From the NCBI RefSeq assembly GCF_000017845.1, contig NC_010546.1:4410001-4442000 (forward strand): DNA of 32,000 nucleotides. The letters are read 5' to 3'. Position 1 is the first letter of the stretch. Each line of letters starts with the position of its first letter. This document shows, piece after piece, positions 7,935-32,000 of the stretch. Origin of the DNA: Crocosphaera subtropica ATCC 51142 (GTDB lineage Bacteria; Cyanobacteriota; Cyanobacteriia; Cyanobacteriales; Microcystaceae). The translations under genes were made by a program, and so were the position numbers. Below the pieces are notes generated by a model. It saw only the letters and a list, made by a program, of their open reading frames with translations. It had not been told where the DNA came from and searched no databases.

Positions 7935-9683
7935 CTACTTTTTACTTGCTAAACCAGCTAACCCCACGCAAGCCAAAGCATTAACTCCTAGAAAAGCTCT
8001 AGAAATCTCTAGTGAGGGCATTCCCCACACCGTAGGGGACATAATAGCATGAACCGTTAAACAAGCTGCTATCCCCAAACTGGTGCCAATGGCAAACCAT
8101 TTCCAGCTACGATGACCTAACAAAATAACAATTAAAACAAAGGGGACGAACACGCTGGCTAAAAAGGGATTTAAAGCAGTAGTCCCTTCAATGGAATTAG
8201 TTAATTCTGGGATAGAACTACCCATGACACGAAACGGCCATTGAGGTAAGTCAAAGATGTAAATCCCTTGTAAAAAGAATAAACCAGAACTTCCCAACAC
8301 TAAACCCCAATTCAAAGGAAGACTAAACGTTAAATAGTTGCGTAACAAGAACGCCAGCAGATACGATCCCAACACCATTAAGAGTTTGGGTAACAACGCA
8401 ACCATACCGCCATCTATCCAAAAACGAGGGTTTAAATAGCCACTATCCCGTAACCAACGGAAAAAGTCTCGAAAGGTTATTTTACCTTTGAGAGCGAGTT
8501 TAACCGCTTCTCCTGCGTCTAATTGACCAGCACCATAATAGTTAAAGGTATCGTCTTCAACTTTACGGGAGGATTGGGTGAGAATAGCTAAAATTTCATT
8601 CGGTTTTTCCACACCAGCAGCTTTAATTAAGGCAGCCACTCCGGCTACATGAGGCGCAGCCATACTGGTTCCCTGGAACCCTGAAAACACGGAATCTCCT
8701 GTACTGGGATCGATGGTTTCTTGGAGAATTTTCCCACTTTCACTACCCCCAGGGGCTGAAATATCAACTCCGGCACCATAATTAGAATAATTCGCTTTTT
8801 TTCCGGCTGCATCAAGGGCCGAAACACTGATCACTTTAGGATATCTAGCCGGATATGAAGCTGCATTTTGATTGCTGTTTCCGGCTGCAGCAATGATGAC
8901 CACACCTTTATCATAGGCGTAGTCAATGGCATCTTTCATCACCTGGCTTTCGCCACCTCCCCCTAAACTCATATTGATAATATCAGCCCCATTATCAGCA
9001 GCAAAGCGAATGGCATCAGCAATATCAGAAACGCTTCCCCCACCCTGGGCTGATAGCACTTTTATGGGCATAATTTTCGCTTGATAAGCAATACCGGCAA
9101 CGCCATAATTATTATTGGTAGACTGGGCAATGGTTCCGGCGACATGGGTTCCGTGGCCATTATCATCGGACGCATCGTTGCGATCGTTGACGAAATCATA
9201 ACCTGAGACAAACTCGGTTTGCCGTAAATCAGGAACACGACTGACTCCAGAATCAATAACAGCGACGGTGATCCCTTCCCCTTTGGTTTCTTCCCAGGCT
9301 CTTTCGACATGGATATTGTGTAAGTTCCATTGTTTACTATAGTCTGGGTCGTTGGGGGTTTCTAAAGCGTGATAAATGTAGTTCGGTTCGATATAATCGA
9401 CGTACTGTTTTAAGGAAGAGTGTTTAAGACTATTTAATAGTTGTTTGTCTCCTGAAACGGTGTATATATGTTCGTCGATCGCATAGATACTATTGAGACT
9501 TGCAGACTTGTTATAGTTAGTTGCGATCGCTTCTATTTGTTCAGTGAGGGTTGTCGTTGAAACATCTTCTCGGAAATTAACAATAATTGATTCATAGTCG
9601 CCTTGGGTAGCCAGTCCTTGAAAATTCATCAAAGCAACCCATAAGCCCACTATAAATAAAATGAGGAATAAAAGTTTCTTCAT
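7935..9683 (-). CDS. S8 (subtilisin-family) serine peptidase with a C-terminal polytopic membrane domain
   Basis: 582 aa. Signal/anchor MKKLLFLILFIVGLWVAL. Catalytic triad motifs VAVIDSGV (D), HGTHVAGT (H) and GTSMAAPHVAG (S). The last ~180 aa contain several hydrophobic helices. Confidence 0.9.
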   Translation of the reverse strand: MKKLLFLILFIVGLWVALMNFQGLATQGDYESIIVNFREDVSTTTLTEQIEAIATNYNKSASLNSIYAIDEHIYTVSGDKQLLNSLKHSSLKQYVDYIEPNYIYHALETPNDPDYSKQWNLHNIHVERAWEETKGEGITVAVIDSGVSRVPDLRQTEFVSGYDFVNDRNDASDDNGHGTHVAGTIAQSTNNNYGVAGIAYQAKIMPIKVLSAQGGGSVSDIADAIRFAADNGADIINMSLGGGGESQVMKDAIDYAYDKGVVIIAAAGNSNQNAASYPARYPKVISVSALDAAGKKANYSNYGAGVDISAPGGSESGKILQETIDPSTGDSVFSGFQGTSMAAPHVAGVAALIKAAGVEKPNEILAILTQSSRKVEDDTFNYYGAGQLDAGEAVKLALKGKITFRDFFRWLRDSGYLNPRFWIDGGMVALLPKLLMVLGSYLLAFLLRNYLTFSLPLNWGLVLGSSGLFFLQGIYIFDLPQWPFRVMGSSIPELTNSIEGTTALNPFLASVFVPFVLIVILLGHRSWKWFAIGTSLGIAACLTVHAIMSPTVWGMPSLEISRAFLGVNALACVGLAGLASKK

Positions 9684-11384: not shown

Positions 11385-12575
11385 ATGGTAACATCTCATT
11401 CTTCAAACTCTGTTGGTTATGATATCGAAAAAACTGTCCTGGATCGTTATCAAGAAGGGGCAAAAGTTCAACAACCTAGTTTATGTTGTCCCACGGAATA
11501 TGAGGGTAACTATTTAGAAATTTTGCCCCAAGAAATTATCGAAAAAGATTACGGCTGTGGTGATCCGACTCGTTATGTGGATGAAGGGGAAACAGTTTTA
11601 GATTTAGGATCGGGAACGGGAAAAAATTGTTATATTTTAGCCAAAAAAGTGGGTAAAACTGGTCAAGTGATTGGGGTTGATTTTAATGATGAGATGTTGA
11701 AAATCGCCCGTAAATATCAACAAGAAATTGCGAATAAAATTGGAACTCATAATACTAAATTTATCAAGGGAAAGATACAAGATTTAACCCTAGATTTAGA
11801 CTTAGTTGAAAGTTGGTTACGGGATCATCCGATTCAATCAGTAGATGATTTAAGTCGGTTTGAAAGTGAATGCGATCGCTTACGGAAAGAAACTCCTTTA
11901 GTAGCAGATGATAGCATTGATGTAGTCATTTCTAACTGTGTTTTGAACTTGGTTAAACCTGATGATAAACAACAGTTATTTGAAGAACTGTATCGGGTTT
12001 TAAAGCGTGGCGGAAGGGCAGTTATTTCTGATATTGTCTGTGATGAAGATCCCACCGAAAACATTTTTAATGATCCCGATTTATGGAGTGGTTGTATTGC
12101 CGGAGCATTCCGAGAAGATGAATTTTTAAAGATGTTTGAAAAAGTGGGATTTTATGGGGTAGAAATTCTAAAACGGGAGGAAACCCCTTGGCAAGTTATT
12201 GATGGTGTGGAATTTCGTTCCATGACTATTCGTGCTTATAAAGGAAAAGAAGGACCTTGTTTAGAAAGAAAACAATCAATTATTTATAAAGGGCCTTGGA
12301 AACAAGTTCAAGACGATGATGGACACATTTTTTGTCGGGGAGAAAGGATGGCAGTTTGTGATAAGACTTATCATATTTTAACCCGTGCCGAAAGTCCTTA
12401 TCAAGCAGATATTATTGGGGTTCCTCCTTATCAAGAAATACCCTTAGAAGAAGCAACGGAATTTAGTTGCAAAAATAAGGCAATTCGTCATCCTAAAGAA
12501 ACCAAAGGCAGTAACTATCATCTCACAGAAATAAAAGAAGATATGGACTGTTGTACTCCTGGAGAATGTTGTTAA
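11385..12575 (+). CDS. arsM: arsenite S-adenosylmethionine methyltransferase
   Basis: 396 aa. SAM motif VLDLGSGTGKNC, plus the ArsM-type conserved cysteines in context (LCCPTEYEG, DYGCGDP, ISNCVLNL, WSGCIAGA). It has a C-terminal domain as in three-domain ArsMs and ends in DCCTPGECC. Confidence 0.85.
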   Translation: MVTSHSSNSVGYDIEKTVLDRYQEGAKVQQPSLCCPTEYEGNYLEILPQEIIEKDYGCGDPTRYVDEGETVLDLGSGTGKNCYILAKKVGKTGQVIGVDFNDEMLKIARKYQQEIANKIGTHNTKFIKGKIQDLTLDLDLVESWLRDHPIQSVDDLSRFESECDRLRKETPLVADDSIDVVISNCVLNLVKPDDKQQLFEELYRVLKRGGRAVISDIVCDEDPTENIFNDPDLWSGCIAGAFREDEFLKMFEKVGFYGVEILKREETPWQVIDGVEFRSMTIRAYKGKEGPCLERKQSIIYKGPWKQVQDDDGHIFCRGERMAVCDKTYHILTRAESPYQADIIGVPPYQEIPLEEATEFSCKNKAIRHPKETKGSNYHLTEIKEDMDCCTPGECC

Positions 12576-12583
12576 TTATTGAT

Positions 12584-12644
12584 TTGTTAACAGTGATTAT
12601 TAAGCGCACCGCTTTGCGGATCTCTTCGAGATCGCTGTTAACAA
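12584..12644. repeat. 61-bp inverted-repeat insert (miniature MITE-like element or compound hairpin) between arsM and arsS
   Basis: Terminal inverted repeat ttgttaacag(tgat) / (atcg)ctgttaacaa. Internal hairpins ccgc-ttt-gcgg and gatctc-ttc-gagatc. The 8-bp direct repeat TTATTGAT lies at 12576-12583, directly abutting the element, and again at 12646-12653, one base past its right end. Confidence 0.55.
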
Positions 12645-12653
12645 CTTATTGAT

Positions 12654-13661
12654 ATGGAGAAAAAAATGATTACTTTAAATACGAATCAACTCACCCCATT
12701 TCATCAGAAAATCAAACATCCTTTAAATAAACAAAGAATAACTGTATTACAAATCAATTTAGGTCGACGTTGTAATCTTGCTTGTAACCATTGTCATGTA
12801 GAAGCAAGTCCCAAACGGACAGAAGAATTATCACCCAAAATTTGTCAACAATTAATTGAATTAATTAACCGCTTTCCACAAATTGAAACCGTAGATTTAA
12901 CGGGAGGCGCACCGGAAATGAACTACGGGTTTAAACCCTTAGTTGAAGCAGCTAGAAACATTAAAAAAGAAGTGATTGTACGCTCCAATTTAACCATATT
13001 TTTTGAGACTGGTTTTGAAGATTTACCCGAATATTTTGCTAAAAATCAGTTAAGAGTCATTGCTTCTTTACCTTGTTATTTAGAGGATAATGTAGATAAA
13101 CAAAGAGGTAAAGGGGTTTATGATGCTTCTATTCGTGCTATTCAAAAACTTAATCAATTGGGTTATGGAAATGATCCCAATTTAATCTTAGATTTAGTTT
13201 ATAATCCTCCCATTCCTAGCAACGAAAACTTTTCTTTAACTCCCAATCAAGTTAGTTTAGAAAAAGATTATCAGACTTTTCTTAAAGATAATTTTGATAT
13301 TAAATTTGATCAACTGTTTACTATTACTAATTTACCCATTGGCAGAGTAAAAAAGTATTTAAAACATAAAAAATTATATGATTCTTATCTGCAATTTTTA
13401 GAGTCTCATTATAACCCCCAAACTCTCGATTATGTTATGTGTCGTAATCAAATTTCTGTTGATTATTTAGGGAATATTTATGACTGTGATTTTAATCAAA
13501 TGGAGAATATTACAGCTACCTTACCCGATGGGAAACCTTTAACCGTAGAAACTTTATTAAAAATGGGTAATTTAGACGTTATTAATGACATCAAAACGGC
13601 TGATTACTGTTATGGTTGTACTGCCGGAAGCGGTTCGAGTTGTGGGGGTTCATTAATTTGA
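12654..13661 (+). CDS. arsS: arsenosugar-biosynthesis radical SAM protein (radical SAM/Cys-rich family, TIGR04167-type)
   Basis: 335 aa. CX3CX2C cluster motif (RRCNLACNHCH) and the characteristic C-terminal Cys-rich tail ADYCYGCTAGSGSSCGG. It sits immediately downstream of arsM. Confidence 0.8.
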   Translation: MEKKMITLNTNQLTPFHQKIKHPLNKQRITVLQINLGRRCNLACNHCHVEASPKRTEELSPKICQQLIELINRFPQIETVDLTGGAPEMNYGFKPLVEAARNIKKEVIVRSNLTIFFETGFEDLPEYFAKNQLRVIASLPCYLEDNVDKQRGKGVYDASIRAIQKLNQLGYGNDPNLILDLVYNPPIPSNENFSLTPNQVSLEKDYQTFLKDNFDIKFDQLFTITNLPIGRVKKYLKHKKLYDSYLQFLESHYNPQTLDYVMCRNQISVDYLGNIYDCDFNQMENITATLPDGKPLTVETLLKMGNLDVINDIKTADYCYGCTAGSGSSCGGSLI

Positions 13662-27979: not shown

Positions 27980-28150
27980 AGTTAGGAGTTCGGAGTATAG
28001 AACGTCATTAAACTAGTATTCGATCACTGTTCACTGATAACTGTCGTCCCCCTACCCCCCATTTCCTCAACTTTCAAAGTTCGCTACCATAACAAAGCAT
28101 GAAGGATAAACATTGCTACCCTACACCATTACAGGAGTTTGAAACCATTA

Positions 28151-29143
28151 ATGTCCACTCTGAAGCTAGATAAGCGTGACTGTCTCCAGTCTCTTCATTT
28201 TCCCCCATTACCTTTATCCCGTCCCTTACTTATGATTGGTCATGGAACCAGAGATAAGGACGGAAAACAAACTTTTCTTGACTTTGTAGCTGCTTATCAA
28301 GCATTAGATACGTCTCGCCCGGTTATTCCTTGTTTTTTAGAACTGACAGAACCCTACATCTCCGAAGGGGTAGATTATTGCGTGTCTCAAGGTTACACCG
28401 ATATTTCTGCTTTACCTATTCTTTTATTTGCTGCCCGTCATAACAAGTTTGATGTTACCAATGAACTCGATCGCACTCGACAACGTTACCCTGAGTTAAA
28501 CTTTCATTATGGTCGTCATTTTGGGATTACCCCTAACCTGTTAAAATTATGGCACGAACGCCTAGACGCTTTAGATCGCCCCGAAGCTAACCCTAAGCAA
28601 ATTAAACGGTCTGAGACTGTCTTATTGTTCGTTGGCAGGGGGTCTAGTGACCCGGATGCTAATGGAGATGTTTGCAAGTTAGCGAGAATGGTATGGGAAG
28701 GTAGCGGTTATCAAACCGTAGAAACCTGTTTTATCGGTATTACCCATCCTCGTCTTGAAGAAGGGTTTAGACGTGCCAGCTTTTATCAACCTAAGCGTAT
28801 TATTGTTTTACCCTATTTCTTGTTTACTGGGGCGTTGGTTAAAAAGATTTTTCGCATCACTGAAGAACAAAAAGCAGTTTATCCTCACATCGAAATGACT
28901 TGTTTACCTGAAATGGGTATCCATCCTCAACTACTACAAGTAGTCAGGGAACGAGAGTTAGAGATACAACAGGGACAAGTACAGATGAACTGTGAAATGT
29001 GCAAGTTTCGTCTAGCTGCGACGGATGATCATGGTCATTCCCATCATCATCATTCTCACGATCATTCCCATCATCATCATACTGCGATTGATCCTTATGC
29101 TAAGGTCGAAGACTATCATCAGCGTATTTGGAAAACCCCTTAA
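28151..29143 (+). CDS. cbiX: sirohydrochlorin cobaltochelatase, long form with a His-rich C-terminal tail
   Basis: Two CbiX half-domains ([10 protein letters not shown]..., [16 protein letters not shown]) and a C-terminal MNCEMCKFR...[17 protein letters not shown]. The ATG at 28151 is preferred over the TTG at 28139. Confidence 0.85.
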
Positions 29144-29173
29144 TTTCAGTTAGCAGTGAATAGTTATCAGTTA

Positions 29174-30649
29174 CTATTTTGTAGCAGAATTATAGACTTT
29201 TTCGTTAGCTTTAACTGATTTGAAAAAGTCTACAACGGGGCGAGGATAGTCAACGCCTATTCTGACATTGTATCGTTTTTGTTCGTCTTGAGAAAGTTTC
29301 CAGGGTTCATGAATTTTATCCCCTGGAATCATTTTTAATTCGGGTAACCAATGTCTTAAATAGTCTCCTTTCGGGTCATAATCTTTTGATTGTTTAGGAA
29401 TATTAAAATAACGAAATCCTCTCGCATCATTTCCGACTCCTGCGGTATAATTCCAGTTTCCATAGTTACTACAAACATCATAATCAATTAATAATGATTC
29501 AAACCATTCAGCCCCCATTATCCAGTTAATTCCTAAATTTTTAGTGAGAAAACTTGCAACATTTTGTCTTCCTCTATTGGACATAAAACCTGTGGCTGCA
29601 ATTTCCCTCATATTGGCATCTACTAAAGGATAACCTGTCTTACTTTCTTGCCAAAGTTTAAACCTTTCTTTATCTTCTTTCCAAGGAATATCTAACCCTT
29701 GTAAACCTGATTCATAAAATATTTTATTACCATGTTTTGCACAAATAAAACGAAAATAGTCACGCCATAATAATTCAAAAATTAGCCAGTAAGTTGAATT
29801 ATTTTTAACTCTTGCGTCTTCATATTTCTGTACTTCTTCATAGATATAACGAGGAGATAAACAACCCTGTGCTAACCAAGGAGAAAACTTAGAAGAATAA
29901 TCCGCCCCTAACATTCCATTCCTGGTTTCTTTATATTCTTTAAGACAGTTTCTTTCCCAAAAGTATTCTTTTAATCGTTTAATTCCTCCCGTTTCCCCTC
30001 CTTTAAAGTTTAACATGCCTCTAGAATGATAGTCAGGTTTTTCTAATCCTAATTCTTCTAAAGTTGGAATTTTCCCTAGTTCAATATTAGGAAAAGGTAG
30101 TAATTTTATCGGAGTTATTAATGTGGGGTTTACCGTAGAACTTTTTTCAACTTTTTTACGAAAACTGGTAAAAACTTCTGGTAATTGATTCACTTCAAAA
30201 GGTAAATCATCCCAATGATATAATGTTGATCCCCAAAATCCTTGGACTTTAACTTTCAGAGGTTTTAAAGCTTGTTTGACTTCTTTTTCTACTGTAGTTT
30301 CTTCTGATGTTACTTCTTCATGAAAATAAACTGCATCTATTTCTAACTCTTTAATTAATTCAGGGATTATTTTTTCAGGATACCCTTTTCTAACAATTAA
30401 ATTACTGCCTAAGTCTTGTAAAGATTGGCGTAAGTTAGCAACACTTTCTAACAAAAATTGACCTCTAAAATTACCCGTTTTAGGAAAGCCATAAGAAGTA
30501 GTTTTAAATTGTCGAATATCAAAACAATACAAAGGAATTATTAAAGCACCCTCTTTAATAGCTTGATACATTGGTTCATGGTCATGAATTCGTAAATCAT
30601 TACGATACCAAATTAAAATTTTTTTATTAGACATACCCAATAATTTCAT
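29174..30649 (-). CDS. cry: cryptochrome DASH / photolyase-family flavoprotein
   Basis: 491 aa. ILIWYRNDLRIHDHEP, SKFSPWLAQGCLSPR, WRDYFRF, TGYPLVDANMREL-like (TGYPLVDANMREIAATGFMSNRGRQNVASFL) and DYDVCSNYGNWNY. An alternative ATG lies at 30634. Confidence 0.9.
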   Translation of the reverse strand: MKLLGMSNKKILIWYRNDLRIHDHEPMYQAIKEGALIIPLYCFDIRQFKTTSYGFPKTGNFRGQFLLESVANLRQSLQDLGSNLIVRKGYPEKIIPELIKELEIDAVYFHEEVTSEETTVEKEVKQALKPLKVKVQGFWGSTLYHWDDLPFEVNQLPEVFTSFRKKVEKSSTVNPTLITPIKLLPFPNIELGKIPTLEELGLEKPDYHSRGMLNFKGGETGGIKRLKEYFWERNCLKEYKETRNGMLGADYSSKFSPWLAQGCLSPRYIYEEVQKYEDARVKNNSTYWLIFELLWRDYFRFICAKHGNKIFYESGLQGLDIPWKEDKERFKLWQESKTGYPLVDANMREIAATGFMSNRGRQNVASFLTKNLGINWIMGAEWFESLLIDYDVCSNYGNWNYTAGVGNDARGFRYFNIPKQSKDYDPKGDYLRHWLPELKMIPGDKIHEPWKLSQDEQKRYNVRIGVDYPRPVVDFFKSVKANEKVYNSATK

Positions 30650-30792
30650 TTATTAAGATTTGTTAAGTATGATAACATTTTTACTCTAATATTTAAAATC
30701 CGCGTGTTTTTGGGCGATCGCATAGGGTTTATATAACAGTTAGAAATAGCAATCGCCATATTTCAAAATTTTTTACAAAATCATAAAATATC

Positions 30793-30822
30793 TAGACAAA
30801 TCTAGGTAAATCTGGTTATACT
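30793..30822 (+). promoter_or_regulatory. candidate sigma70-type promoter for the terminal ORF
   Basis: TAGACA (30793-30798), an 18-nt spacer, then TATACT (30817-30822). This is pattern-only evidence. The region also contains an aaatct direct repeat and a tctaga palindrome. Confidence 0.25.
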
Positions 30823-30846
30823 CGAAACAGCACTGAGGAAAAAGTC

Positions 30847-32000
30847 ATTTCTGAGTTTGTTAGTCCAAAAGAAGCAGCACAGAGTCTTGGGGTTAGCGTC
30901 GATACTTTGCGACGTTGGGAAAAAGCTGGAAAAATTAGTGCAATTAGAACGGCCGCAGGACATAGAAGATATGACGTTCATTCAGTACATAAACAGGACA
31001 CTCAAAATGATAGGGAGAAATATTGGGTGAATGAGGAAACAGTACAAAGAATTGCCAAGGGAATCTGTCAGTATCATCAAAATATAAACAGGCAAAAATT
31101 ATCTCAATATCCAGCTAATTTACAGTTAGCAGTCGATAAATTAATCATCAAGTGTTTGTTAACAAAAACAGAGCCTCTACAGGGAGTTCCAGATTTTCTT
31201 AATCGTTGGGCAAAACAGCTTTTGCAAGATTGGGATTTGGATATTAATTGTCCTGAAGATTGGCATAGTAAATCTTTAATAGAAGAACAAAAACCGAGTA
31301 ATTTTTGTGTTGAAACTGCAGAGGAATATTTAGAAGAATACGGTAATTTTCAAAGAAAGGTAGTTGAAAAGCTAAGATTAAAAGCTTTTTGCGATTGCGA
31401 TTTATATACTAAGTTTCGGCAATATATTATCGAACATCCTATAATTACTAAAGGTGAACTAGATACAACCGCTATTTTAGAGTTTTCATCATTAAAAGAA
31501 TTATTAATAGACTGTTACGAACTAGCACCAGAATCGTATAAAAAAGATGGTAATTTCTATTATTGCGGTCATTGTGGTGGTTTGATGTATTTAAAAAGTG
31601 ATGGTGATTTGCGATGTGAAAATCGTCATTGTTTGCAATATAAGAAAAAACCAATTCCTTTTAAAGCAGATAGTAACGATTTAGTTTTATGGTTAAAGCA
31701 AGATTTACGCTATTTTATGCACCGCCCTGGTAGACCAGAAGTAAGGTTATTTAATAAGCTAAAAAAATTAGATTTAAAAGAGGTAATTCTTTTTCCTAAC
31801 TTAGATATATACGATATACATTTAGTTTTTCCTGACGATACAGTTTGGGCGATTGATCTTAAGTTTTGGGAGTCAGCATATAACTTAGCTAAGAAAGTCG
31901 ATAAACCTATTCCACGTTGGAAAGAACAGCCTTACAACGAATGTTTTTTCATATTTCCTGATGAGATAAAACACTACAGTAAGGAATATATACAAGAATT
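30847..32000 (+). CDS. partial multi-domain protein with a MerR/IS607-type HTH, a zinc ribbon and a PD-(D/E)xK nuclease-like motif (3' end outside the window)
   Basis: The frame is open from 30796 (after TAG at 30793-30795) to the window end, so it is absent from the ORF track. HTH: SPKEAAQSLGVSVDTLRRWEKAGKISAIRTAAGHRRYD. Zinc ribbon: CGHC (31564-31575) and CENRHC (31615-31632). Nuclease motif: D(31813)...WAIDLK, with D at 31855 and K at 31861. There is no in-frame ATG/GTG/TTG ahead of the HTH. ATT at 30847 sits 7 nt after GAGGA (30835-30839) and is my tentative start. Confidence 0.6.
   Translation, partial: MSEFVSPKEAAQSLGVSVDTLRRWEKAGKISAIRTAAGHRRYDVHSVHKQDTQNDREKYWVNEETVQRIAKGICQYHQNINRQKLSQYPANLQLAVDKLIIKCLLTKTEPLQGVPDFLNRWAKQLLQDWDLDINCPEDWHSKSLIEEQKPSNFCVETAEEYLEEYGNFQRKVVEKLRLKAFCDCDLYTKFRQYIIEHPIITKGELDTTAILEFSSLKELLIDCYELAPESYKKDGNFYYCGHCGGLMYLKSDGDLRCENRHCLQYKKKPIPFKADSNDLVLWLKQDLRYFMHRPGRPEVRLFNKLKKLDLKEVILFPNLDIYDIHLVFPDDTVWAIDLKFWESAYNLAKKVDKPIPRWKEQPYNECFFIFPDEIKHYSKEYIQE

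Follow-up and report, generated by a model that had tools for sequence, protein, structure and literature searches.

At the right-hand edge of a 32,000-nucleotide stretch of Crocosphaera subtropica ATCC 51142 DNA (contig NC_010546.1, positions 4,410,001 to 4,442,000 of the forward strand; hereafter the window), an open reading frame (ORF) begins directly behind a stop codon, encodes a MerR-like helix-turn-helix (HTH) followed by a restriction endonuclease (REase)-like motif, and leaves the window with no canonical start codon ahead of the HTH. What is this gene, to which system does it belong, and where could its translation begin? The evidence presented here identifies it, almost certainly, as the REase component and first gene of a pPIWI-RE three-gene island. 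The best explanation of the locus as a whole, namely a pPIWI-RE island with an AUU start, autoregulation by the HTH and a restriction-type action, is one that we regard, taken jointly, as highly probable.

Reading frame and domain architecture

The plus-strand frame 30796–32000 follows immediately on the TAG at 30793–30795 and runs without a stop for 401 codons within the window, as the first-pass annotation, made from the letters alone, had described; the window's ORF list lacks it because the frame runs past the window end. The continuation was reached from the pPIWI-RE protein of a 90%-identical relative through the ATCC 51142 orthologue (P0039) to contig L027, which overlaps window positions 30122–32000 (1879 nt, 0 mismatches). 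All coordinates beyond 32000 are window-equivalent positions taken from this contig. The gene ends 97 nt past the edge, at 32097, and its product has 416 residues; the closest database protein, P0001 from Cyanothece ATCC 51472 (100% identical), likewise extends 31–32 residues past the edge. Residue numbers are counted from the ATT at 30847. The features of the protein within the window are as follows.

30847–32000, plus strand: HTH–Y–zinc ribbon–REase gene, codons 1–384 of 416 (stop codon ends at 32097, from continuation contig L027)
30865–30972, plus strand: MerR-like winged HTH of the short BldC/Xis type, residues 7–42 (Pfam MerR PF00376, E 6e-13)
31039–31449, plus strand: pPIWI_RE domain Y, mostly helical, residues 65–201 (Pfam PF18156, E 4e-37, positions 1–144 of the 144 of the model)
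31564–31632, plus strand: zinc ribbon CGHC...CENRHC, with C240, C243, C257 and C262 (conserved in homolog alignments)
31729–32000, plus strand: pPIWI_RE REase domain of the PD-(D/E)xK type, residues 295–384 in the window (PF18154 and PADLOC PprRE)

The matches of the window-encoded protein to the MerR HTH, pPIWI_RE_Y and pPIWI_RE_REase all exceed the Pfam gathering scores. The REase match (PF18154, E 2e-24, residues 295–383) is clipped by the window edge, and the PADLOC check that had been suggested returned the profile PprRE (E 8e-41). The resemblance to pPIWI-RE-type REases, suggested earlier, is thereby borne out by three profiles, and what had been called an unrecognised helical region of ~200 residues is in fact the Pfam domain pPIWI_RE_Y. 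The zinc ribbon (CxxC...CxxxxC) and the nuclease-like motif are also where they had been placed, and both, like the HTH, are invariant in 19 homologs. The candidate catalytic residues E298 (31738), D323 (31813), D337 (31855) and K339 (31861), with the YD...DxK motif at 31813–31863, are invariant in alignments of 19 and of 29 homologs, as is R191 (31417) of domain Y; the four zinc-ribbon cysteines, together with H242 and H261, are invariant or nearly so in the same alignments. The first-pass annotation had held that a frame ending shortly after 32000 with no nuclease support in profile searches would speak against it. The frame does end soon, while the family assignment of the nuclease is strong.

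The HTH had been likened to that of IS607-type recombinases. A MerR-like HTH is indeed present, although the IS607 likeness is generic only. The NCBIfam matches are limited to the HTH and all lie below the curated cut-offs, ranking BldC (HTH_BldC, 41 bits against a cut-off of 77, which is short of BldC-family membership), then IS607 transposase (E 3.8e-7, 29.8 bits against a cut-off of 110) and excisionase. The Pfam MerR_1 match covers only positions 3–42 of 69, and domain Y begins at residue 65. Pfam found no MerR coiled-coil or effector domain after the HTH, so that the C-terminal part of a classical MerR protein is missing, and neither Pfam nor NCBIfam found a resolvase or serine-recombinase domain there, in agreement with the first-pass annotation.

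The closest solved structures of the HTH are those of BldC (6ama and 6amk; 42–44% identity over 45–48 residues, TM to target 0.67–0.70), with Pukovnik Xis also near, and a PDB sequence search returned relatives for the HTH only. For the protein as cut off by the window edge, the AlphaFold2 (AF2) model was of poor quality (pLDDT 63.5), and Foldseek matched its HTH only. The model of a full-length homolog (P0006; pLDDT 75.0, pTM 0.57) also gave high-probability Foldseek matches in the PDB for the HTH only. Its other matches (E 0.015–0.6) are mostly PD-(D/E)xK nucleases, including NucS/EndoMS, Hjc, EcoO109I, Can2/Card1, SfsA and DdmD; none of the nuclease-fold matches reached E ≤ 0.001, and this search gave no structural match to domain Y. 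The Foldseek check that had been proposed therefore yields nuclease matches that are consistent with the Pfam assignment, yet weak and not significant.

Burroughs, Iyer and Aravind (2013; PMC3702460) described pPIWI-RE three-gene islands, including domain Y, with MerR, LexA and TetR HTH fusions to the REase.

The operon beyond the window and its insertion site

If the gene belongs to such an island, a helicase gene and a prokaryotic PIWI gene are expected downstream, and this is exactly what L027 carries.

30650–32000, plus strand: left part of the ~7.85-kb inserted island (span ~30636/30650 to ~38486, past the window; from empty-site comparison)
30847–32097, plus strand: REase gene in full, 416 codons
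32094–35345: DinG-type helicase, 1083 residues, with pPIWI_RE_Z domain and an ATGA overlap with the REase stop
35364–38258: pPIWI-RE, 964 residues, with X, MID and RNaseH domains, after an 18-nt gap behind the helicase gene
38740–39984, minus strand: argJ, a core gene beyond the island
Past argJ: chemotaxis genes

The order REase, DinG-type superfamily 2 (SF2) helicase and pPIWI-RE, with overlapping or closely spaced ends, is that of the pPIWI-RE three-gene island. The overlap between the REase stop and the DinG start is conserved among related loci, and the 90%-identical relative (L001) carries the same triad. The helicase has a Walker A motif (GIPSAGKS) and VIIDEVD, with four cysteines between the two motifs. 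No methylase or recombinase gene lies between cry and argJ on L027, in keeping with the lack of a cognate methylase that marks such islands. No tRNA was found at the island borders, and an Rfam scan of 29000–32000 gave nothing credible.

In C. subtropica (formerly Cyanothece ATCC 51142/51472) the core genes cry and argJ flank an inserted unit of ~7.85 kb. Comparison with a Crocosphaera metagenome-assembled genome (L034; Cry 81% identical) makes this plain: there, argJ stands directly beside cry, without the island. Nucleotide homology between L034 and the window ends at 30635, in cry, and restarts at 38487, upstream of argJ; the interval between these two points measures 90 nt in L034 and 7851 nt in C. 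subtropica, and therefore the ~7.85 kb is an insertion. The accessory-island boundary that had been suspected next to cry is thus real, and the proposed presence/absence check in relatives is what reveals it.

Composition, which had been cited as a further sign of the island, does not mark the boundary. The REase ORF is AT-rich and HIP1-free as stated (33.0% GC, 0 HIP1), but cry is just as AT-rich and HIP1-free (32.1% GC, 0 HIP1), and composition and HIP1 density were rejected as boundary markers because of this. The island has 32.6% GC against 37.9% in the rest of the window, and its one HIP1 in 7.4 kb, against 0.45 per kb elsewhere in the window, is not a significant difference.

Several observations were made around the insertion site. 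A HIP1 site, GGCGATCGC (30713–30721), and a degenerate inverted copy, GCAATCGCC (30749–30757), lie upstream of the island promoter; L002–L004 have a perfect GGCGATCGCC at the aligned place, with differing farther flanks, and a further HIP1 follows the PIWI stop codon at window-equivalent 38261. Between the island and argJ there is a conserved hydrophobic ORF of 52 residues (MLYKPLKLMLITATIFVWIRLLAG...) with a GAGGAG Shine–Dalgarno (SD) sequence (window-equivalent 38604–38762, plus strand; L027:8483-8641); it is also present in the island-free L034 (L034:9637-9795) and therefore belongs to the core argJ–cry spacer; no Pfam match is recorded for it. In Crocosphaera sp. UHCC 0190 the argJ–cry spot is occupied by a FAD_binding_3 gene of 499 residues (L035:8454-9953). 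The spacer seems to be a recurrent insertion site. On the other side, beside the 3′ end of cry, window positions 28139–29143 (plus strand) hold a CbiX-like ORF with a histidine-rich C-terminal tail, and the CbiX–cry adjacency recurs in the marine Crocosphaera contigs L032 and L033.

The start codon

Where, then, does translation of the REase gene begin? The codons in question are these.

30833–30843, plus strand: Shine–Dalgarno region CTGAGGAAAAA, core GAGGA at 30835–30839, 7 nt before the ATT
30847–30849, plus strand: ATT, the probable start codon (cross-locus comparison)
30907–30909, plus strand: TTG taken as start by the database models P0001–P0005, which begin (M/L)RRWEK, inside the HTH

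Read codon by codon, the frame holds no in-frame ATG, GTG or TTG between the TAG at 30793–30795 and the HTH, as had been reported before; the earliest canonical codon is the TTG at 30907–30909, which is codon 21 from the ATT and lies within the HTH. Translation has to begin between the upstream stop and the HTH, and the sole conserved candidate start there is the ATT at 30847, behind a near-invariant GAGG SD sequence. The GAGGA at 30835–30839 precedes the ATT by exactly 7 nt, in agreement with the coordinates given by the first-pass annotation, which had left the choice between a rare start at this codon and a 5′ truncation. Related loci strongly support the rare start, and give no support to truncation.

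The comparison comprised 29 related loci with 49–90% protein identity, from genera that include Crocosphaera, Coleofasciculus, Crinalium, Floridaenema, Phormidium, Nostoc, Calothrix, Rivularia and Moorena. At 26 of them, the codon in register with 30847 is ATT; one locus (L021) has ATA there, and two (L028 and L029, a single lineage) have an ATG, which keeps its distance from the SD sequence unchanged. Among the 23 distinct sequences, the upstream TTGAGGAAAA is near-invariant at all three codon positions (entropy 0–0.26) and is followed by a variable 4-nt spacer; a three-base periodicity of substitutions then starts at the ATT, with mean entropies of 0.42/0.21/1.05 over codons 2–20. The stretch from the closest in-frame stop upstream (5–17 codons away) to the ATT is free of canonical starts at 21 of 23 loci, and the first canonical codon downstream differs among loci, from codon 5 to codon 65. 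The HTH-less Leptolyngbya homologs start with ATG instead. What one would look for in an AUU start is accordingly present, namely a conserved AUU, a proper SD distance, no other canonical start and a coding signal from that codon onwards. Judged from these alignments, translation very probably starts at the AUU at 30847. In Escherichia coli an AUU yields ~1–2% of what AUG yields, and the confirmed AUU starts of that species are infC and pcnB only (bioRxiv 10.1101/063800).

Database models disagree on this point. The RefSeq model of the Nostoc TCL26-01 homolog (L036:8001) begins at the ATT itself, the Moorena producens CP017599 homolog (L031:7989-8003) is annotated from an ATA 4 codons past the conserved ATT, and models from Crocosphaera, Stanieria and N. 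edaphicum begin at internal codons, which truncates the HTH. We judge the use of the TTG at 30907 to be a probable mis-call because the 20 codons upstream of it are under purifying selection. Three further candidates were considered and rejected: leaderless translation, as the −10 box lies 25 nt upstream of the ATT and the SD sequence is conserved; a TTG or CTG within the SD sequence reached by a +1 slip on the A-run, which is out of frame except in L030 (CTG in the window) and has no SD sequence of its own; and the upstream ATG or GTG of L015 and L019, which are not conserved and lie within the promoter repeats.

Promoter and candidate operator

Upstream of the SD sequence lies a promoter-like site that overlaps a set of phased repeats.

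30793–30822, plus strand: promoter-like site TAGACA–18 nt–TATACT (−35 at 30793–30798, −10 at 30817–30822), the best sigma-70-type match in 30600–31000, 10 of 12 positions
30792–30820, plus strand: candidate operator of 10-bp-phased direct repeats, overlapping the −35 hexamer and the spacer
30792–30800, plus strand: repeat unit 1, CTAGACAAA
30802–30810, plus strand: repeat unit 2, CTAGGTAAA
30812–30820, plus strand: degenerate third unit, CTGGTTATA

The −10 column TANNNT is aligned in 23 of 23 loci; if this predicted promoter is used, transcription would start near 30829 and leave a leader of ~18 nt. A DNA pattern search gave two exact repeat matches, 10 bp apart, at the promoter site. The core CTAKRYAW occurs one to three times between −90 and −26 in all of 26 loci, 58 times altogether where the remainder of the loci would predict 0.6, a statistic that is indicative only, the pattern having been derived from these same related loci. 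The 10-bp repeats were established from the sequence, the pattern search and the cross-locus count; a general repeat finder did not report them. The phasing is kept throughout, and the orientation depends on the clade, with direct repeats in Crocosphaera and Coleofasciculus and two to three reverse units plus one forward unit in Nostocales.

A classical MerR operator is a palindrome within a 19–20-bp spacer, whereas here the spacer is 18 bp and the repeats are direct. BldC, in which the MerR dimerisation domain is absent, binds head-to-tail to direct repeats of 9 bp (PMC5859096). Two roles were considered for the HTH in PMC3702460, that of an autoregulator and, alternatively, nuclease targeting; a BldC-like HTH with repeats at its own promoter therefore supports the former option. 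Whether the HTH would indeed autoregulate the operon through the candidate repeats we consider evenly balanced.

Distribution of related islands

The cry context of the island is common only to Cyanothece BG0011; the other Crocosphaera islands are flanked by unrelated genes, and in Nostoc two plasmids carry the complete triad, one of 48.7 kb and a conjugative one of 99 kb. With the empty site in L034, the differing contexts and the plasmid copies, the distribution is that of a sporadic, horizontally transferred unit. A library of 1.84 billion representatives contains 911 clusters of the REase family at E ≤ 0.001, and most members of the family lack the N-terminal HTH; the MerR-fused cyanobacterial clade forms one 50%-identity cluster, and other clusters with an HTH-fused REase include P0261, P0267, P0291, P0295 and P0310. 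No homolog was found in the phage collection.

In Crocosphaera chwakensis CCY0110 (L005:10001-14537) the island is decayed. An IS630-type element (HTH_32 + DDE_3) is inserted at 12480–13428, the REase has lost its first ~33 codons, DinG is cut at 424 residues and PIWI is reduced to its C-terminal 376 residues.

The plasmid-borne and Moorena islands stand beside other conflict genes (L036:4401-6096, the L037 flanks and L031:16640-17117), including a HaeIII-family REase with an adenine methylase, ParA, a tyrosine recombinase, AAA-like proteins, an Rpn-family nuclease and a BrnT/CopG toxin-antitoxin pair. In Leptolyngbya, the HTH-less REase homologs (L024:9971-11089 and L025:9980-11083) begin with ATG at domain Y; L025 has a separate, divergent XRE-type HTH gene (9221–9616, minus strand), and the homolog in L024 is preceded by a giant P-loop-containing ORF of 1791 residues.

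Proposed mechanism

We propose that AUU initiation would keep the HTH-nuclease scarce, and that the HTH would bind the CTAKRYAA repeats, which lie in 10-bp phase across the −35 hexamer and the spacer, and repress its own operon. Under such autorepression, a weak start codon would raise the mRNA level needed to reach the repressing concentration, and the higher mRNA set-point would benefit the helicase and PIWI, each with an ATG of its own, more than the nuclease. For the effector steps we follow the published hypothesis, in which pPIWI-RE would recognise a guide/target, an R-loop or an RNA–DNA hybrid on invading DNA, DinG would unwind or translocate, and the REase would then cut the DNA. The R-loop restriction model for pPIWI-RE was put forward as a hypothesis in PMC3702460. 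In vitro, PsPIWI-RE of Pseudomonas stutzeri, which belongs to a similar triad, acts as a nuclease on DNA with an RNA guide and on RNA with a DNA guide (PMC10991935), and this activity constitutes the only biochemical support for recognition, unwinding and cleavage. For a defence function of the island, the balance tips slightly in favour.

A more speculative and fairly unlikely extension is that the conserved AUU with its strong SD sequence could tie the output of the repressor-nuclease to initiation fidelity, that is, to initiation factor 3 (IF3), so that infection or stress would switch the operon, and that together with autorepression it could set a low ratio of nuclease to helicase and PIWI. 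If true, this layer of AUU/IF3 translational sensing and dosage would be undescribed for any Argonaute- or PIWI-type defence system.

Alternative explanations

How well do other readings account for the same facts? One would have translation start at the TTG at 30907, leaving the 60 nt upstream untranslated and the HTH truncated and non-functional. TTG does count as a canonical start codon, and all five closest database models (P0001–P0005) use it; however, the 20 codons before it show the coding periodicity described above and encode a conserved peptide, ISEFVSPKEA..LGVS, the position of the first canonical codon is clade-dependent and therefore not that of a conserved start, no SD sequence precedes the TTG, one lineage carries ATG at the ATT position, and RefSeq itself uses the ATT in Nostoc TCL26-01. 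We thus consider a TTG start very unlikely. Still less credible is a 5′-truncated or decaying pseudogene whose original start has been lost, with the island as a relic. The missing canonical start and the decayed island of CCY0110, with its IS630-type insertion and truncated REase, would fit such a view, but the ATT and SD sequence are kept in 26 of the 29 loci across Chroococcales, Nostocales and Oscillatoriales-type genera, the three island genes are all intact in C. subtropica, and the catalytic and zinc residues of the REase are invariant. As for an IS607-like or other mobile-element recombinase, or an ordinary MerR metal or stress regulator, the domain content refutes it to the point that we give it almost no credence: the weak NCBIfam matches of the first ~50 residues (IS607 transposase and MerR-family regulators) and the tblastn matches to plasmid IS607 transposases (residues 1–56 only) stop at the HTH, the former far below the cut-offs, with no resolvase, MerR coiled-coil or effector domain, whereas residues 65–416 consist of pPIWI_RE_Y and pPIWI_RE_REase.

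Two readings that accept the pPIWI-RE island differ in what its parts would do. The HTH might serve to give the nuclease sequence specificity or to tether it to DNA during restriction, instead of regulating the operon; it is covalently fused to the nuclease, targeting is an option listed in PMC3702460, and BldC/Xis-type domains can be architectural DNA binders (PMC5859096). Against this, each clade has conserved phased repeats exactly over the promoter of the gene itself, which is the signature expected of autoregulation, and the two roles are mutually compatible; a targeting role in place of regulation strikes us as unlikely. Similarly, the triad could be a chromosome-maintenance module acting in replication termination, decatenation or repair, as proposed for PsPIWI-RE, and not an immune system. 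DinG helicases do work in repair, and a P. stutzeri piwi-re knockout shows heightened sensitivity to ciprofloxacin and a cell-division phenotype (PMC10991935). On the other hand, the island is missing at the same site in the close relative L034 and decayed in CCY0110, its relatives occupy unrelated contexts and plasmids near restriction-modification and toxin-antitoxin genes, and it is accessory defence genes, rather than core maintenance functions, that typically show so patchy and mobile a distribution. We hold the maintenance view, too, to be improbable.

Having favoured a pPIWI-RE island with an AUU start, autoregulation and a restriction-type action, we would note what weighs against that reading. 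The case for the AUU is purely comparative, and the efficiency figure quoted for AUU comes from E. coli and not from cyanobacteria. The operator motif was set post hoc on related sequences, its period is 10 bp where that of BldC is 9 bp, and its orientation varies by clade. The two structure models reach no more than moderate quality (pLDDT 63.5 and 75.0), with nuclease-fold matches that are not significant, and alignment alone does not settle the catalytic competence of the pPIWI-RE protein (DEDX tetrad). Finally, no anti-phage or anti-plasmid activity was found for any pPIWI-RE triad in the literature searched, and the one knockout study (piwi-re of P. stutzeri; PMC10991935) points to replication and cell division, not to defence.

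Significance

The pPIWI-RE system and its MerR fusion were already described in 2013. The clade-wide AUU start with its strong SD sequence and the candidate operator appear to be undescribed, though one RefSeq record already starts at the ATT. Few PIWI/Argonaute-related systems of prokaryotes still have an essentially untested biology, and the pPIWI-RE triads are among them. This locus provides a clean and intact triad in a model cyanobacterium that can be cultivated (C. subtropica ATCC 51142/51472); its insertion site is defined, an empty site is available for comparison, and relatives are carried on plasmids. A practical point follows from the start codon: most database models of the clade begin inside the HTH and hide the DNA-binding domain, and cloning from them gives a truncated protein. 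More generally, the conserved AUU would be a rare case of clade-wide non-canonical initiation, against two confirmed cases in E. coli, and together with the phased repeats it offers a concrete model for how a nuclease prone to self-targeting may be kept scarce.

Comparison with known systems

The C proteins of type II restriction-modification systems are HTH regulators that head a nuclease transcription unit and set nuclease expression through operators at their own promoter. They are separate, small proteins and work alongside methylase-based self-protection, whereas the present island has no methylase and carries its HTH within the nuclease itself.

In DdmDE and the long prokaryotic Argonaute systems, a PIWI-fold guide binder acts against foreign DNA together with helicase and PD-(D/E)xK nuclease partners. 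The Foldseek matches of our model to DdmD (8u3k and 9khz) are weak (E 0.15–0.28). Unlike those systems, pPIWI-RE is a distinct PIWI family, the helicase and nuclease are separate proteins, the helicase is of the DinG Fe–S type, and the role of the island is putative.

CvkR, the MerR-type repressor of cyanobacterial type V-K CRISPR-associated transposons (PMC9938897), is likewise a MerR-type regulator of a mobile, nucleic-acid-guided system. Its mRNA is leaderless, its protein level is low and its database start codons were wrong, so that an unusual translation signal is common to both. However, CvkR is a protein of its own, transcribed divergently, and binds a palindrome as a dimer, whereas the HTH of the present gene forms part of the effector nuclease, whose mRNA would have a leader with an SD sequence and AUU.

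Conserved non-canonical starts in genes whose product level must be limited are known from infC and pcnB (AUU, E. coli; bioRxiv 10.1101/063800) and sigR (GTC, Streptomyces; PMC5472188), and IF3-dependent discrimination would be expected here as it is for those genes. The present case differs in that the product is an accessory nuclease/regulator rather than a factor of translation or RNA metabolism, that the host is a cyanobacterium, and that the start was assigned by comparison.

As to the DNA-binding part, the HTH stands close to BldC of Streptomyces (42–44% identity over ~46 residues) and to phage Xis (PDB 6AMA, 6AMK and 4J2N; PMC5859096). Like BldC, it has no MerR coiled-coil or effector domain, and its candidate sites are tandem direct repeats, of the kind that BldC binds head-to-tail. 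Unlike BldC, which is a free protein of 68 residues, it is fused to a nuclease module of ~370 residues; the period is 10 rather than 9 bp, some clades have inverted units, and binding is here a prediction.

The nearest system remains the pPIWI-RE island of PMC3702460 (PADLOC PprRE/PprDinG/PprPIWI), with which the locus agrees in domain Y, zinc ribbon, REase, gene order, the lack of a methylase and the patchy spread. A fusion to a MerR-type HTH is explicitly listed there, and the architecture here shows no difference from it. What the present analysis adds is the conserved ATT with its strong SD sequence, the phased repeats, a precise insertion checked against an empty site, and carriage on Nostoc plasmids.

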